Shown here: positions 1 to 29,975 of the stretch, one piece after another
Layout of the letters: each line of letters starts with the position of its first letter
Position numbering within the stretch: the first letter of the stretch is position 1
DNA from: Arenicellales bacterium
Lineage (GTDB): Bacteria; Pseudomonadota; Gammaproteobacteria; Arenicellales; Poriferihabitantaceae
Direction of reading: 5' to 3'
DNA: 64,000 nt
Assembly (NCBI GenBank): GCA_963422685.1
Contig: OY730442.1
Coordinates: 2,317,839-2,381,838, forward strand
The notes under the pieces: model-generated
Told to the model about the DNA's origin: nothing
Seen by the model: only the letters and a program-made list of their open reading frames with translations
The model's database searches: none
Translations under genes and position numbers: made by a program

Positions 1-35
1 AATTATTAATAATTTGATAATTCGTCAACACGACC
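1..35. mobile_element. Right end of a MITE (second copy of the element at 29745-29975), truncated by the window edge
   Basis: Positions 1-37 are identical to 29941-29977, including the terminal inverted repeat ATTCGTCAACACGACC followed by TA. Confidence 0.8.
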
Positions 36-37
36 TA

Positions 38-137
38 ATCCACCTTCAGCGTCAGCTTTTTTGCGGTCTTGTTGTCTTCAATGCCAAAGCGGATAGCCTC
101 CTCGGCGCCAGTCGGTATGTTTGATAGCTGTGCGCGG
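38..137 (-). pseudogene. Start-less divergent copy of the 3' end of the adjacent pilin gene
   Basis: Translates as RAQLSNIPTGAEEAIRFGIEDNKTAKKLTLKVD*, against RGQISNIPDDAE-TIRFGVTNDKAAKKLTLKVDK in the CDS (nt 192-288). Confidence 0.8.
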
Positions 138-164
138 CGCGGTTTATGCTATATGCTTTTGTTC

Positions 165-752
165 TCACTGGATTTCGATTCTGGCGTATTTATCCACCTT
201 CAGCGTCAGTTTCTTTGCGGCTTTGTCGTTTGTAACACCAAAGCGAATAGTCTCGGCGTCATCCGGTATGTTTGATATCTGTCCGCGCGCATCAAAATGC
301 AGCTTCAGCGCCGTGGGGACGCTTTTGATTTGTGGTATCAGCGTCACCCCGGTGCTGCCCTGGGCCCTGAGTATGGGTTCATTCGGGCACTGGGCCGGGG
401 GGGGTGAGACGGTGATACGCCGTATGTGGTTGTCATCACAATCCAGAAAGGCAACCCAGCCGTCGTTCCATTTTTTTTGGTTGGTGCGGCATAAGTCGGC
501 GTCCTTGCTGGCGCATATCACGGCTTGCTGTGAAGACGCCCGCGCCGCGCCGCGCGTCAGCCGGATGGTGCTGCTCAGCGCCTCGGCGGTTTTGTCGATG
601 CGGGCATTGCCTAAAAATCCGATAAAGGCCGGCGTGACCAGGCCGGCGATAACGCCAATGACAACTAGTACGATCATGACCTCAATCAGAGTAAACCCGG
701 ACAGGCCCAACGATGAATTTGCAGGTTTTGTATCAGGCATATTCTGTGGCAT
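165..752 (-). CDS. FimT/GspH-family type IV minor pilin / pseudopilin
   Basis: Prepilin cleavage/methylation motif G|FTLIEVMIVLVVIG; VICAS...C...W..GW..F pattern typical of FimT. The start could be 752 or 740. Confidence 0.8.
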   Translation of the reverse strand: MPQNMPDTKPANSSLGLSGFTLIEVMIVLVVIGVIAGLVTPAFIGFLGNARIDKTAEALSSTIRLTRGAARASSQQAVICASKDADLCRTNQKKWNDGWVAFLDCDDNHIRRITVSPPPAQCPNEPILRAQGSTGVTLIPQIKSVPTALKLHFDARGQISNIPDDAETIRFGVTNDKAAKKLTLKVDKYARIEIQ

Positions 753-894
753 AGACGGTGGATATTCCCGTGCCGTTTCGCACAAAAATTGTATCCCATG
801 GGTATGGATGCAAAGGTTTCAATTTGTAACAATATTTGTAAAACCAGGGATTCGCCTGCCAACCCATATTCCCCGAATATGCCCGGATATGACC

Positions 895-923
895 TAGACC
901 GCAAAACCAGGCACCCCTATAAT
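895..923 (+). promoter_or_regulatory. Sigma70-like promoter for tRNA-Thr
   Basis: TAGACC (895-900), 17-bp spacer, TATAAT (918-923), 17 nt upstream of the tRNA. Confidence 0.6.
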
Positions 924-940
924 CCAATTCTACAGGCCAT

Positions 941-1017
<77 letters not shown>

Positions 1018-1580
1018 TTTCACCGGCCGGCGGCCAGGCACCGGGGCCTGTCCCTACGTTTTGGCACGGTGCGTATTCCGGGCCGCCTCTTTCCGGCACT
1101 ATTTCACTGGTCGGCGGCCAGGCGCGATTGTAATATATTTTGCAGGTCGTCAACGAGTTGCACCGATGCACGATATCCGACAACAACAACATAACGTAGG
1201 GACAACCCCCCGTGGTTGTCCGGGCCAGGCACCGGGGCCTGGCCCTACGTTTTGGCACGGTGCGTATTCCGGGCCGCCTCTTTCCGGCACTATTTCACCG
1301 GTCGGCGGCCAGGCGTGGTTGTAATATATTTTGCGAGTCGTCAACGAGTTGTCCGGGCCAGGCACCGGGGCCTGTCCCTACGTTTTGGCACGGTGCGTAT
1401 TCCGGGCCGCCTCTTTCCGGCACTATTTCACTGGTCGGCGGCCAGGCGCGATTGTAATATATTTTGCAGGTCGTCAACGAGTTGCACCGATGCACGATAT
1501 CCGACAACAACAACAACATAACGTAGGGACAACCCTCCGTGGTTGTCCGGGACAGGCCCCGGGGCCTGTCCCTACGGTTG
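1018..1580. repeat. Tandem chimeric repeat of about three units (tRNA 3' end + RAYT gene fragment + GTAG-REP hairpins)
   Basis: Units at about 1035-1225, 1226-1358 (internally deleted) and 1359-1576; REP doublets at about 1195-1249 and 1522-1576. Confidence 0.85.
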
Positions 1581-1594
1581 GGGCCGTTTTTCCA

Positions 1595-3748
1595 TCAGCC
1601 GGCAGACAGGAACTGCTGCACCTTGTGCAGCGCCACAATGCTTTTGGCGTCATCCATCTCTCCCGAGGCGATCATGGCTTCTGCCGCGCACATTCCGAAC
1701 CAGTGAATTTCAATGAATTCATGGGCTTCATGGGCCGGCTCACCGGCGGCCAGGTCGGTGGCCAGATAGATATGCAGTCTTTCATCGCAGAACCCCGGTG
1801 TGGTCAGGGTTGATCCCAGGGATTCCCATTGGTGCGCGGTAAATCCCGTTTCTTCTCTGAGCTCGCGCCGGGCGGCGGCCAGCGGGCTTTCATGCGCGGC
1901 CAGCGTCCCGGCAGGAAATTCCCAGATCCAGCCGCCTGCGGCAGGTCGAAACTGCCTGAGCACGCAAATCCGGCGGCTGTCATCTATGGCGACGATGACC
2001 GTCCCACCGGGGTGGCGAACTACTTCGGCGGCCATGAGCTCACCATTGGGCGATCGGGTCGTTTCCAGCCCAAAGTCCACCACGTGGCCAGCATAGATGG
2101 TGCGGCGATTTGGTTCATTCGCGAAGGTGATCAGGGACGGCGCATAGCCCCGGGGTGCATGATAGCCGAGTAAATTGAAAACCGTGGCCGCCACGTTGGC
2201 CAGGCCGCCGTCCATGCCGTGATTCAGTTGATATGCCGGGTCACTGGCACTGTCGACGATGACGAATGGCACCGGATTCAGCGAATGGGAAGTGCGCACA
2301 ACTTTATTGCCAGCCTTTTCCACGAACATTTCTTCGGCGTTGCCGTGGTCTGCGGTGAGGATCAAAAGGCCGTTATACCGTTGAATGCACTCGACTAACC
2401 GCCCAAGACAGGTGTCCACGCAGGCCAGGGATTGAACCGTGGCGGCAATGTCCCCGGTATGCCCCACCATATCGCCATTGGCGAAATTTATTCTGCCGAA
2501 GTCGTATTTCCCGGATTCGATCAATTCGATGGTGGCGTCGGTGATTTCCACGGCCTTCATTTCCGGCGCCTGGTTGAATTCACAGTTATCGGACGGGATT
2601 TCCACATAGGTTTCCAGCGATGGGTCAATGCAGCCGGAACGATTGCCGTTCCAGAAATAGGTGACATGCCCGAATTTCTGGGTTTCGCTTACAACGAACG
2701 TGCGCAGGCCGGCTGCGCACATATATTCGCTCATGGTACGGTCGATTACCGGCGGATTGACCAGATAGTTTTCCGGTACATGCAGGTCGCCGTCGTATTG
2801 CAGCAGGCCGCAAAAATACACATCGGGATACGCGCCGCGGTCAAATTCGGCAAATTCCGGATCTGACATCGCCCGGGATATTTCAATTGCCCGGTCGCCG
2901 CGAAAATTAAACAGAACCACGCCATCGCCCGCTGCCATTTTCCCCACCGGGCCATGCTTGTCAACCACCACGAACGGCGCAAGATACTGGTCGGAAAGGT
3001 TCGGGTCGGCATGATATTGCCGCCTCACTTCTTCCAGTGCGCTAGCGGTTTCCGAACCGATTCCAGCGACATTCGCCAAAACATGGGTGTCGAATCCCCG
3101 CTTTACCATGTCCCAGTCCGCTGCGTATCTATCCATGGTAATGGCCATGCGGCCGCCGCCAGAGGCAATTCGATAATTAAAACGCCCGGTTTGATTGATC
3201 TGATCCAGCATGTCCTGAAGCTGGCCGATATAGACCGGGGCGGACCTGGGCGCCACGTCACGACCGTCCAGCAATACATGGATGCATACCGACGGGATTG
3301 CGGCTTCCTGGCAGCGGTTGAGCAGTTGCAGCAAATGATCGATATGCGAATGGACGTTGCCGTCGGACAGCAAGCCGAGAAAGTGGATGGTGTTGCCATG
3401 TTTGCCGCGACATTCGATTTCCTGCCAGCACTCGCTTGTATAGAGGCGGCCGCTGGCAAATGCCGCGTTGACCAGTTTTGCACCCTGGTCAACTATGCGT
3501 CCGCAGCCCAGGGTGTTGTGCCCCACTTCACTGTTACCCATATCAGTATCCTCAGGCAGGCCGACATGGGTGCCGTGGGCATGCAGCCGGGTGCTTGAAC
3601 CGGATTGCAGTAATCCATCAATGACTGGCGTTTTGGCCAAAAACAATGCGTTGGCCGGGCCGTCTTCAGCCAGTCCCACACCATCGGCCACCACCAGCAA
3701 CAACGGGCCTTTTCTGCCTTTGAATGTGACCAGTTTCGTCAGTTGCAT
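1595..3748 (-). CDS. gpmI: 2,3-bisphosphoglycerate-independent phosphoglycerate mutase fused to a C-terminal Nudix hydrolase (ADP-ribose pyrophosphatase-like)
   Basis: iPGM motifs DGVG, GNSEVGH, SDGNVHSH, NFRGDRA, ETQKFGHVT, NGDMVGH, TADHGN; Nudix box GTLAAHESPLAAARRELREETG in the last ~170 aa. Confidence 0.9.
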   Translation of the reverse strand: MQLTKLVTFKGRKGPLLLVVADGVGLAEDGPANALFLAKTPVIDGLLQSGSSTRLHAHGTHVGLPEDTDMGNSEVGHNTLGCGRIVDQGAKLVNAAFASGRLYTSECWQEIECRGKHGNTIHFLGLLSDGNVHSHIDHLLQLLNRCQEAAIPSVCIHVLLDGRDVAPRSAPVYIGQLQDMLDQINQTGRFNYRIASGGGRMAITMDRYAADWDMVKRGFDTHVLANVAGIGSETASALEEVRRQYHADPNLSDQYLAPFVVVDKHGPVGKMAAGDGVVLFNFRGDRAIEISRAMSDPEFAEFDRGAYPDVYFCGLLQYDGDLHVPENYLVNPPVIDRTMSEYMCAAGLRTFVVSETQKFGHVTYFWNGNRSGCIDPSLETYVEIPSDNCEFNQAPEMKAVEITDATIELIESGKYDFGRINFANGDMVGHTGDIAATVQSLACVDTCLGRLVECIQRYNGLLILTADHGNAEEMFVEKAGNKVVRTSHSLNPVPFVIVDSASDPAYQLNHGMDGGLANVAATVFNLLGYHAPRGYAPSLITFANEPNRRTIYAGHVVDFGLETTRSPNGELMAAEVVRHPGGTVIVAIDDSRRICVLRQFRPAAGGWIWEFPAGTLAAHESPLAAARRELREETGFTAHQWESLGSTLTTPGFCDERLHIYLATDLAAGEPAHEAHEFIEIHWFGMCAAEAMIASGEMDDAKSIVALHKVQQFLSAG

Positions 3749-25506: not shown

Positions 25507-26079
25507 TCACCCCTCCACCCAATTTTGCGGATTGTATTTATCCAATTCCCATTTCAGGGGGTTGTTTTTAATATATTCCCGGATGCGGTCTAAATCGTCA
25601 TCGTTGCGAATAACGTGGTCGTAAAAGGAGCGTTGCCATAATTTTCCATCAAAAGACTCCCACCCATCATTCTTGACACCTGTAATATATTTGCAGGTCG
25701 TTAACGATTTGAACCGATGCACGATGTCCGATAACGACAATGTAGGGACAACCCCCTGTGGTTGTCCTTTATCTGGACAGGCACGGGGGCCTGTCCCTAC
25801 ACCCTCGGCACGGGGGCCGTCTCCGACAATGACAATTATGCCGTGGGCGTGATTAGGCATAATCTGGAATTGGTCTGTCTGAATACCGCGATAAAATTTC
25901 GGTAGTTCCTTCCAGGTTCTTTCCACCATTTCCCCTGCGGCATTGGTAATCATGTGGCCATCCATTATTTCACCGAACAATTCGGTTCTGTTCTGCGTAC
26001 AGATGGTCAAAAAATAATATCCTGCCCGGGAATAATCGTAATGCTGTAACCGATTCGGTTTTCTCTCGCGGTTATTCAT
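25507..26079 (-). CDS. REP-associated tyrosine transposase (RAYT; Y1/HUH family)
   Basis: RLQHYDYSRAGYYFLTICT, HUH motif IMPNHAHGII, WQRSFYDHVIR, YIKNNP catalytic tyrosine. Confidence 0.9.
   Translation of the reverse strand: MNNRERKPNRLQHYDYSRAGYYFLTICTQNRTELFGEIMDGHMITNAAGEMVERTWKELPKFYRGIQTDQFQIMPNHAHGIIVIVGDGPRAEGVGTGPRACPDKGQPQGVVPTLSLSDIVHRFKSLTTCKYITGVKNDGWESFDGKLWQRSFYDHVIRNDDDLDRIREYIKNNPLKWELDKYNPQNWVEG
25741..25801. repeat. GTAG-type REP doublet (REPIN-like) inside the RAYT CDS
   Basis: GTAG-GGACAACC-ccctgt-GGTTGTCC and inverted GGACAGGC-acgggg-GCCTGTCC-CTAC. Confidence 0.85.
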
Positions 26080-28515: not shown

Positions 28516-29745
28516 GTGTCGGACTCAAGCATTCCAGATCAATCGAAAGTGGTCATCATCGGCGGCGGTGTCATGGGCGCCAGCGTGGCCTGGCATCTGA
28601 CCCGGCTCGGCTGTGGCGATGTGGTGCTGCTGGAACGCGGGCAACCGGGTTGCGGCACCAGTTGGCATTCGGCGGGGAATATTATCCGCATGAGCACCGA
28701 CCCGGCCAGCGTTGAAATCTATACCTATGGCGCACAATTGCTGGCGCAGCTTCATGCTCGTTATGGCATTGGCTGGCGTCAATGCGGGCGGATGATGATT
28801 GCCGGAAGCAAACGGCGTGTTGCTGAATTTGCATCTATTTATCGCACGCTGAATGATGCCGGGGTTGCCATCGAGATGGTTTCGCCGGATAGCGTAAAAG
28901 ACCGGATTCCGGTTATGAACACCGCCGACGTTCTTGGCGCATTGTGGAGTCCCGGAGACGGGCGGGTCAATCCTGCTGATCTGGTTAATGCCTACATTCG
29001 GGAGGCCCGGGCCCAGGGTGCGCAAATCTGCGAGGGGGTTACCGTGCGCCATGCGCTGACCGATAACGGCCGGGTCACCGGCGTGAGTACGGATCAGGGT
29101 AATGTGCGCTGCCAGGTGGTGGTTAATTGTGCCGGCCTGTGGGCCAGAGAACTCGGGCTGCGCAATGATGTCGCCATACCGTTGTATGCGGTGGAGCATT
29201 TCTATGCGTTGACGGAAAACATCCCGGGGGTTTATGCCGACATGCCCACTTTTCGCGACCCGGACGGATTGATCTATGGTCGTGAGGAAGTGGGCGGCCT
29301 GTTGCTGGGATGCTTTGACCGCAATGCGATTCCGGTTAGTCCGGCGGCATTGCCCGAACCTTTCTGTTTCTCATTGCTGGATGAAAATTGGGATCAGTTC
29401 ATGCCGTATATGCAGCAAGGCATTCATCGCATACCGGCGCTGCAGCACGCCGGTATTCGGACGCTGCTCAATGGGCCGGAGTCATTCACCCCCGATGCCC
29501 AGCCGCACCTTGATGAGGCGCCCAATCTGAAAAATTATTTCGTGTTGGCAGGATTGAGTTCGTCCGGGGTAACGTGCTCTGCTGGCATGGGCAGGGCGTT
29601 GGCCGGCTGGATAGTCGAAAAAGATCCAGGTGTTGATATAACAGCCTTCAGTTTGCGCCGCTATCGACCGGAAGATAATGATGAAGCGAATTTACGCCGA
29701 TGTATCCGCAATGCACCGAGCAGGCACTTTGCGATGGCGCACTAG
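28516..29745 (+). CDS. FAD-dependent oxidoreductase, dimethylglycine/sarcosine dehydrogenase N-terminal (DAO) type, without a GcvT half
   Basis: IIGGGVMG, GTSWHSAG, GDGRVNP, FRDPDG, NGPESFTPD. Confidence 0.85.
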   Translation: MSDSSIPDQSKVVIIGGGVMGASVAWHLTRLGCGDVVLLERGQPGCGTSWHSAGNIIRMSTDPASVEIYTYGAQLLAQLHARYGIGWRQCGRMMIAGSKRRVAEFASIYRTLNDAGVAIEMVSPDSVKDRIPVMNTADVLGALWSPGDGRVNPADLVNAYIREARAQGAQICEGVTVRHALTDNGRVTGVSTDQGNVRCQVVVNCAGLWARELGLRNDVAIPLYAVEHFYALTENIPGVYADMPTFRDPDGLIYGREEVGGLLLGCFDRNAIPVSPAALPEPFCFSLLDENWDQFMPYMQQGIHRIPALQHAGIRTLLNGPESFTPDAQPHLDEAPNLKNYFVLAGLSSSGVTCSAGMGRALAGWIVEKDPGVDITAFSLRRYRPEDNDEANLRRCIRNAPSRHFAMAH

Positions 29746-29975
29746 GCCGTGTTGACGAATTGTAGGGACAGGCCCCCGTGGTTGTCCTTCATCATGGACA
29801 GGCACGGGGGCCTGTCCCTACACCCTCGGCACGGGGGCCGGGCGGGTTTGATGTCTGTCAAAATTGATTCAATCCGCGACCAGATCAAATCGGTGACCAG
29901 TATACTCATGACGACCCTCCTCAAAACTGTTGTGGGATACAATTATTAATAATTTGATAATTCGTCAACACGACC
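29745..29975. mobile_element. 231-bp MITE with 16-bp terminal inverted repeats and a TA duplication, carrying a REP doublet
   Basis: GGCCGTGTTGACGAAT ... ATTCGTCAACACGACC (1 mismatch), flanked by TA on both sides; a second copy ends at position 35. Confidence 0.8.

Follow-up and report, generated by a model that had tools for sequence, protein, structure and literature searches.

The tRNA-Thr(CGU) gene near the start of the 64,000-nucleotide stretch of Arenicellales bacterium DNA analysed here (the window; GenBank assembly GCA_963422685.1, contig OY730442.1, positions 2,317,839 to 2,381,838) is followed by an array of repeated units that starts inside the tRNA at position 1002 and finishes at 1575. 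The locus is, in our judgement, probably a tRNA-linked (TLR-type) tandem repeat, in which a segment of about 191 bp was amplified in place to approximately 3.5 copies. The array is a one-off look-alike of the tRNA-linked repeats (TLRs) of Escherichia coli and not a new mobile element.

The tRNA-Thr(CGU) gene (941..1017, + strand) is intact with an encoded CCA (ARAGORN; 73.3 bits with the Rfam tRNA model), and a sigma-70-like promoter, TAGACC-17-TATAAT, recognized by consensus match only, lies 17 nt 5′ of it (895..923, +). A 38-nt block at 1002-1039, CCTCTTTCCGGCACCATTTCACCGGCCGGCGGCCAGGC, referred to here as block A, is made up of the final 16 nt of the tRNA (T-stem 3′ strand through CCA) and 22 nt of the trailer. 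A repeat finder located further copies at 1086, 1277 and 1410 that share 92-95% identity with the first, and the positions and sequences given for these recurrences in a preliminary description of the locus were correct. The tRNA 3′-end portion is matched at 15 of its 16 nt in each of the three further copies, all of which show CTA in place of CCA. Using as criterion a copy of the last 16 nt, with one mismatch allowed, within 3 kb, the CGU-Thr tRNA was the sole one among the 39 tRNA genes of the genome to have such copies; the preliminary description had advised a genome search for copies at other tRNAs, and none was found at the others of these 39 genes.

A full unit, as represented by unit 2 (191 nt, 1086-1276, +), contains in order a copy of block A (1086-1123), a 5-nt linker (GCGAT, 1124-1128), a piece C with similarity to the coding sequence of a RAYT-like gene (1129-1195), a REP hairpin H1 (1196-1221), an inverted REP hairpin H2 (1223-1248) and a 28-nt tail (1249-1276). 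Piece C is 67 nt long in this unit, begins with TGTAATATAT and contains a (CAA)n run. Unit 4 (1410..1575, +) is also full except that the tail is missing, and consists of block A (1410-1447), the linker, C (1453-1522), H1 (1523-1548) and H2 (1550-1575); its (CAA)n run (1504-1519, compared with 1180-1192 in unit 2) has one CAA more. H1 reads GTAGGGACAACCCCCCGTGGTTGTCC and the inverted H2 reads GTAGGGMCAGGCCCCGGTGCCTGKCC, ending in CTAC; both are GTAG-tagged REP hairpins, the stems of which are maintained in the array by compensatory changes.

The other two units are shorter. Unit 1 (84 nt, 1002..1085, +) includes block A (1002-1039), H2 (1032-1057) and the tail (1058-1085) and has neither the RAYT coding piece nor H1; here, block A passes directly into the right half of H2, its final 8 nt, GGCCAGGC, also serving as the left arm of that hairpin. 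Unit 3 (133 nt, 1277..1409, +) has block A (1277-1314), the linker GTGGT, a C shortened to 32 nt (1320-1351), H2 (1356-1381) and the tail (1382-1409), while the distal half of C and H1 are missing, the shortened C meeting the H1 end via a GTTG microhomology. The statement in the preliminary description that each copy of the tRNA end is followed by a RAYT piece thus holds for the full units 2 and 4, but not for unit 1, and in unit 3 for just 32 nt. Judging from these junctions, units 1 and 3 look like deletions between short direct repeats (the 8-nt GGCCAGGC and the 4-nt GTTG, respectively), although unit 1 could equally represent the older state, in which case the RAYT piece would have been inserted into a pre-existing trailer REP, as block A ends in GGCCAGGC.

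The array occupies the 3′ intergenic space of a convergent gene encoding an iPGM-NUDIX fusion (phosphoglycerate mutase; 1595..3748, -), the stop codon of which lies 19 nt from the end of unit 4. Among the neighbours is also a pilin gene (GspH/FimT-like, 165..785), whose C-terminal 50 residues have a 52%-identical copy at 32-184 (-); this copy contains two TAG stops, lies beside a MITE end and is a partial duplication or pseudogene.

The body of the array can be traced to a RAYT-like gene of the Y1 (HUH) type (25507..26079, -; 190 aa; Pfam Y1_Tnp, HUH motif NHAHG), which is located between hsdM and hsdS at a distance of 24 kb and is present in a single copy in the 2.9-Mb single-contig genome. 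The donor segment (25681..25800, given on the + strand) corresponds to codons 94-133 and comprises 60 nt encoding LSLSDIVHRFKSLTTCKY and an in-frame REP doublet (H1 at 25742-25767, H2 at 25775-25800). In local alignment, these 120 nt match 1129-1248 in unit 2 and 1453-1575 in unit 4. It had been considered in the preliminary description that the similarity to RAYT might be limited to the REP itself. This is not so: the similarity extends 60 nt past the hairpin doublet, with 54 of 61 positions identical between gene and array to the left of the hairpins, and piece C alone aligns to the RAYT gene with a local score of 85, compared with 14.9 +/- 2.1 for shuffled sequences. The claim that the units hold RAYT coding sequence beyond the REP was therefore borne out. 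To the right of the doublet, anchored alignments of the RAYT gene with the 28-nt tail and with the flank after unit 4 revealed no significant similarity, the only shared words being the 7-mer GGCACGG and the 8-mer GGGGCCGT.

Sequence comparison also makes the direction of copying clear, namely from the RAYT gene to the array and not the reverse, because the gene keeps the family consensus and the array copies are decayed. The gene retains the family peptide LSLSD(I/V)VHRFKSLTT, which is conserved across 28 homologues from several phyla. The array copies, 12% diverged from the gene in the RAYT piece, read ...HRCNSLTT, contain the (CAA)n expansion and have a frameshift with respect to the hairpin part.

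The hairpins themselves are coding sequence in this family. Their translations, VG(T/D/A)GPRACP for H2 and GQPQGV(V/A)PT for H1, recur in most of the 28 homologues, sometimes in several copies, and are conserved across phyla in the form VGxGPRACP and GQPQGVxPT. A homologue with 60% identity from an unrelated assembly (P0069, locus L017, 1501-2097) also has the two hairpins within its coding sequence, GGGCAGGC-N6-GCCTGCCC and GGGCAACC-N6-GGTTGCCC, with stems maintained by compensatory changes. The doublet is a native in-frame part of the coding sequence of this family, and what had been described as a REP together with about 65 bp of coding sequence is therefore one contiguous 120-nt chunk of the gene. 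In addition, members of the family range from 162 to 285 aa in length via additional hairpin copies. The L017 homologue lies in a type I restriction-modification operon with the order hsdM-rhuM-RAYT-hsdS, and the RAYT-like gene of the present genome is likewise found within a type I restriction-modification operon.

Apart from the RAYT coding sequence and the array, the REP doublet occurs at 27 further loci of the genome, all of them inside MITEs derived from IS5. These belong to two related non-autonomous derivatives of the IS5 family with the terminal inverted repeat CTAGGCCGTGTTGACGAAT: a form of about 230 bp, an example of which is found in the window (29745..29975, +), and a longer form of about 580 bp (e.g., genome C1:918100-918700) that has kept a C-terminal remnant of the DDE transposase. 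The longer form carries 19-20 nt of extra RAYT coding sequence, and its right edge is exactly CTAC, as in the array fragment. Since all 27 loci are inside MITEs, the genome has no free REPIN population, and the doublet spreads in it by hitch-hiking in these elements. Inside one MITE (C1:443711-443915), a 27-nt half-REP, ACACCCTCGGCACGGGGGCCTGTCCCTAC, is present in approximately six tandem copies.

The array was found only once. BLAST searches with every module indicated that block A, C and the tail are absent elsewhere in the 2.9-Mb genome, save for C in the RAYT gene, and the composite unit (block A with the RAYT piece) is absent at any other locus or tRNA of the genome. The array is also absent from 30 relatives, in which the tRNA alone is common with unrelated trailers; synteny comparison showed that relatives keep neither neighbour of tRNA-Thr(CGU). 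Exact-pattern scans of public genome and metagenome collections, for which we used the pseudo-att copy, the tail-to-A junction and the C segment with both variants allowed, returned zero other copies. The movement by RAYT cut-and-paste that had been proposed in the preliminary description is not supported by this distribution, in that the doublet occurs only in the RAYT coding sequence, the 27 MITEs and the array, and the composite unit nowhere else. Interpretation of the array as a MITE-like, multi-locus mobile element was rejected because block A, C and the tail are confined to one locus; interpretations as a REPIN population or as att-site accretion were rejected as well.

The pattern of identity among the units points to unequal crossing-over and gene conversion within a tandem array. 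Positions 1032-1191 share 100% identity with 1356-1515 along 160 nt, compared with approximately 92% in the adjoining H1-H2 parts; the identical tract ends at the (CAA)n run. The three tails are all identical, and the divergent copies are those at the edges (the first block A and the flank after unit 4). Furthermore, in a 2013 sample (run X9), unit 1 carries the variants C1027T and T1051G, both of which are states found in other units of the reference, indicating that units have exchanged sequence in different samples of this organism. Homologous exchange among units is, like the putative deletion derivatives, read from the sequence itself.

On this basis, formation of the array as a TLR-type repeat may be envisaged in four steps. 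First, ectopic copying would have placed the RAYT piece in the tRNA trailer, a step that was probably directed either by homology between REPs or by nicking by RAYT at the CTAC edge of the doublet. Second, one illegitimate duplication would have made the tail|CCTC junction. Third, unequal crossing-over and gene conversion would have expanded and homogenized the array, and finally deletions between the short repeats GGCCAGGC and GTTG would have given rise to the units of 84 and 133 nt. What we infer is how the RAYT piece was copied, how the first illegitimate junction was formed and whatever function the array may have. Several observations count against amplification of the TLR type: the first duplication junction, CCGGGCCG|CCTCTTTCC, is without microhomology; the last unit is without a tail, which is unexpected under simple tandem duplication; and the right edge of the fragment is exactly CTAC, the natural boundary of a REP. 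Given this precise edge, RAYT may have catalysed the first step, and nothing in the analysis supports RAYT as the mechanism of amplification.

An unlikely alternative is that the HUH nuclease drove both the formation and the amplification of the array. A single-stranded DNA nick at the GTAG/CTAC edge of the in-gene doublet would release a fragment whose flanking coding sequence varies and which is then inserted into the tRNA trailer, after which REP-to-REP strand transfer, as proposed for BIME clusters, would amplify everything in between, including the copy of the tRNA end. Cleavage by RAYT at GTAG and models of BIME amplification have been published (PMC3733652; bioRxiv 10.1101/2024.07.17.603846). 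Such a process would account for a right edge of exactly CTAC| in both the array and the type-2 MITEs and for left edges that vary (25681 in the array vs. 25721 in the MITEs), as expected of one precise cut and one imprecise end. It is also favoured by a relative of another genus (G013), in which a system of this kind can be active: its genome contains two RAYT-like copies, of which one is split by a frameshift, as well as more than 50 dispersed, free 26-nt REP singlets of the H1/H2 type, of the same sequence and with exact boundaries, so that its RAYT-REP system looks like a classical dispersed one. However, a free REP or REPIN population is lacking in the present genome, where the 27 other copies are all in IS5-type MITEs, and the left boundary of the array fragment, TGTAATATA, has no hairpin or GTAG. 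Moreover, the identical tract extends from the H2 left arm as far as the (CAA)n run and not from REP edge to REP edge, and the repetition of the tRNA 3′ end is left unexplained by RAYT action.

It is improbable that the array is the relic of a larger structure, i.e., of either another complete RAYT copy or an island with such a copy, which once lay at tRNA-Thr and has decayed to 120 nt per unit. In favour of this are the two RAYT copies of G013 and the classic islands, bordered by 54-nt repeats of the 3′ half of the tRNA, that are found at the same tRNA-Thr(CGU) in another relative (G017, C1:3397370-3426583). An old age of the array is also indicated by its 12% divergence from the gene. On the other hand, tblastn near the array detected only RAYT residues ~83-133 and nothing from 1-80 or 134-190, so that the fragment is not the visible remnant of an entire gene, and a decayed full-length second RAYT copy at the array is correspondingly unlikely. 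The sharp edges of the fragment and the lack of an additional att copy downstream and of an integrase nearby also argue against a relic.

Serial site-specific integration, in which a tyrosine integrase would repeatedly insert a non-autonomous circle of about 190 bp with an attP-like copy of block A (a CIME-like mini-element) at the tRNA 3′ end, is quite improbable. It would be consistent with the presence of block A copies at every unit boundary, and the features of block A are typical of the identity blocks of tRNA-integrating elements. However, it is the RAYT piece that closes the array, in place of an att copy and then the original flank; neither a second locus nor a free copy was found in the genome or in the public collections, and no integrase gene lies near the array. 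Five PF00589 (Phage_integrase) matches were detected in the genome, all of them more than 325 kb away, two of which cover the full domain and, judged by their size, look like XerC and XerD; integrase-mediated accretion is thus unlikely given that even the nearest match is at this distance. The idea that att-like tRNA ends were regenerated with each insertion could not be upheld either, considering that there is no terminal att copy and no integrase nearby and that the identity mosaic fits homologous unequal exchange.

The tandem amplification that had been noted in the preliminary description was confirmed both by the four copies of block A and by the depth of unitigs in public sequencing data. 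Every junction unitig was present with zero mismatches in five public runs from four samples (Logan). In runs X1, X2, X4 and X5, depths of the tail-to-A, A-to-C and unit-specific unitigs were approximately 3:2:1, as predicted by the assembly (in X1: tail-to-A 231, A-to-C 155, unit-specific 73-74, flanks 66-78). In X3, the unitigs specific for units 2 and 3 had approximately 0.6x the depth of the flanks, and multi-copy ones were proportionally lower, which is suggestive of a mixed population where part of the genomes lack the 324 bp between the identical tracts, unitig depths being noisy. Two runs with the same species label (X14 and X15) did not cover the locus. Mis-assembly sometimes affects repeats that are shorter than the reads, but with a zero-mismatch unitig of its own for every junction, depths that follow the predicted 3:2:1 and RNA-type contigs that cross the unit 1/unit 2 junction, the chance that the array is a mis-expanded assembly artefact is negligible.

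With regard to expression, three runs of 2013 were taken as RNA libraries based on their behaviour, i.e., poly-T/poly-A contig tails and very uneven coverage. Several of their contigs, which are unstranded, begin inside the tRNA and reach as far as unit 2 (960-1057, 946-1132 and 985-1172), and further contigs cover 1078-1252 and 1356-1431. In the same runs, the depth was approximately 0 over 720-940, and the iPGM gene had a depth of approximately 3 or was absent. It is therefore likely that the array is co-transcribed with tRNA-Thr, in which case it would be transcribed as a 3′ trailer of the tRNA. H2 followed by TACGTTTTGG has a terminator-like score, and the predicted fold of the trailer and unit 2 (z = -3.7) is dominated by the REP stems. 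The GC-rich REP hairpins with their T-runs are probably leaky terminators or 3′ stabilizers between two convergent genes, and because the tRNA 3′ end and trailer recur in every unit, the nucleases that process tRNA 3′ ends could excise unit-length RNAs, as is the case for the TLR RNAs of E. coli.

A more speculative view, which we regard as unlikely, is that the array could be a functional trap locus, whose RNAs, driven by the strong tRNA-Thr promoter, would repress the HUH nuclease in trans. Cuts at each repeat of the tRNA 3′ end and trailer would free two or three unit-length RNAs, and these would pair as antisense RNAs with the RAYT mRNA (codons 94-133) and with MITE transcripts at their REP doublets. 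The predicted duplex of array RNA and RAYT mRNA has an energy of -77.6 kcal/mol, compared with -36 +/- 3.5 for shuffled sequences. RNA-type coverage beginning at the tRNA is in line with this view. The orientation fits such pairing, in that array and RAYT locus correspond + strand to + strand, with the RAYT gene encoded on the - strand, a fit with a 50% chance of occurring. If true, the trap locus would be a bacterial counterpart, in a tRNA trailer, of a transposon-derived antisense cluster; unless the antisense idea holds, a single locus in a single genome remains a curiosity.

The tRNA-linked repeats of E. coli have been known since 1978 and their origin is unexplained. In the unrelated gammaproteobacterium studied here, this layout has arisen independently, with a body traced to a donor gene 24 kb off, which suggests a general route to such repeats: foreign DNA is caught in a tRNA trailer and then amplified by unequal exchange that includes the tRNA 3′ end. 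The array also provides a dated example in which intermediates are visible. The locus shows, moreover, pieces of RAYT coding sequence travelling with the in-gene REP doublet, which bears on the origin of REPs.

Among the known systems, REPIN/RAYT systems and BIMEs share with the array the GTAG-tagged inverted doublet, which is REPIN-like and matches the single-copy RAYT-like gene of the genome. BIMEs are clusters of REPs with repeated linkers. Nevertheless, the doublet lies in frame within the RAYT coding sequence here, whereas REPs flank the gene in REPIN systems; the genome has no dispersed extragenic REPIN population; and the linker between REPs in the array is 137 nt long and holds the tRNA 3′ end together with RAYT coding sequence. 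The att repeats of tRNA-integrating islands and CIMEs resemble the array as direct repeats of a tRNA 3′ end downstream of an intact tRNA, but the intervals in the array are just 84-191 nt, free of genes and of integrase, and no terminal att copy is present. True islands at the same tRNA are found in G017, where direct repeats of the 3′ 54 nt of tRNA-Thr(CGU) lie 13 kb and 29 kb away on the downstream side, as is classic for two islands integrated in tandem; these are 13-16 kb long with a 54-nt repeat, and their structure is unlike that of the array. By analogy with 3′ETS-leuZ, one of the sRNAs derived from 3′ external transcribed spacers of tRNA operons, the array could be the source of a functional RNA from a tRNA trailer, although its pairing with RAYT mRNA is a prediction.

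The preliminary description had stated that no described element has this structure, yet the layout is shared by the E. coli TLRs, 22 of which are distributed over ten loci with one to five per locus (PMC8144298). [quoted passage not shown] As in tyrT, rtT RNA and rrA/rrB/rrF, the units of the array are arranged in tandem directly 3′ of a tRNA and within its transcription unit, the last 16-19 nt of the tRNA are present in each unit, and there are one to five units of approximately 100-190 nt; read-through transcription, likely for the array, is a further likeness (PMC8144298). An Rfam scan of the array (E<=5) returned the tRNA and chance hits only, with no rtT, and the array is therefore an analogue of the TLRs and not a member. 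It also differs from them in its occurrence at one locus compared with ten in E. coli, in a repeated block that adds 22 nt of trailer and in the change from CCA to CTA in the array copies. Finally, the bodies of the E. coli repeats are without a traced origin, whereas the body of the array is traceable to a RAYT fragment with REP hairpins.
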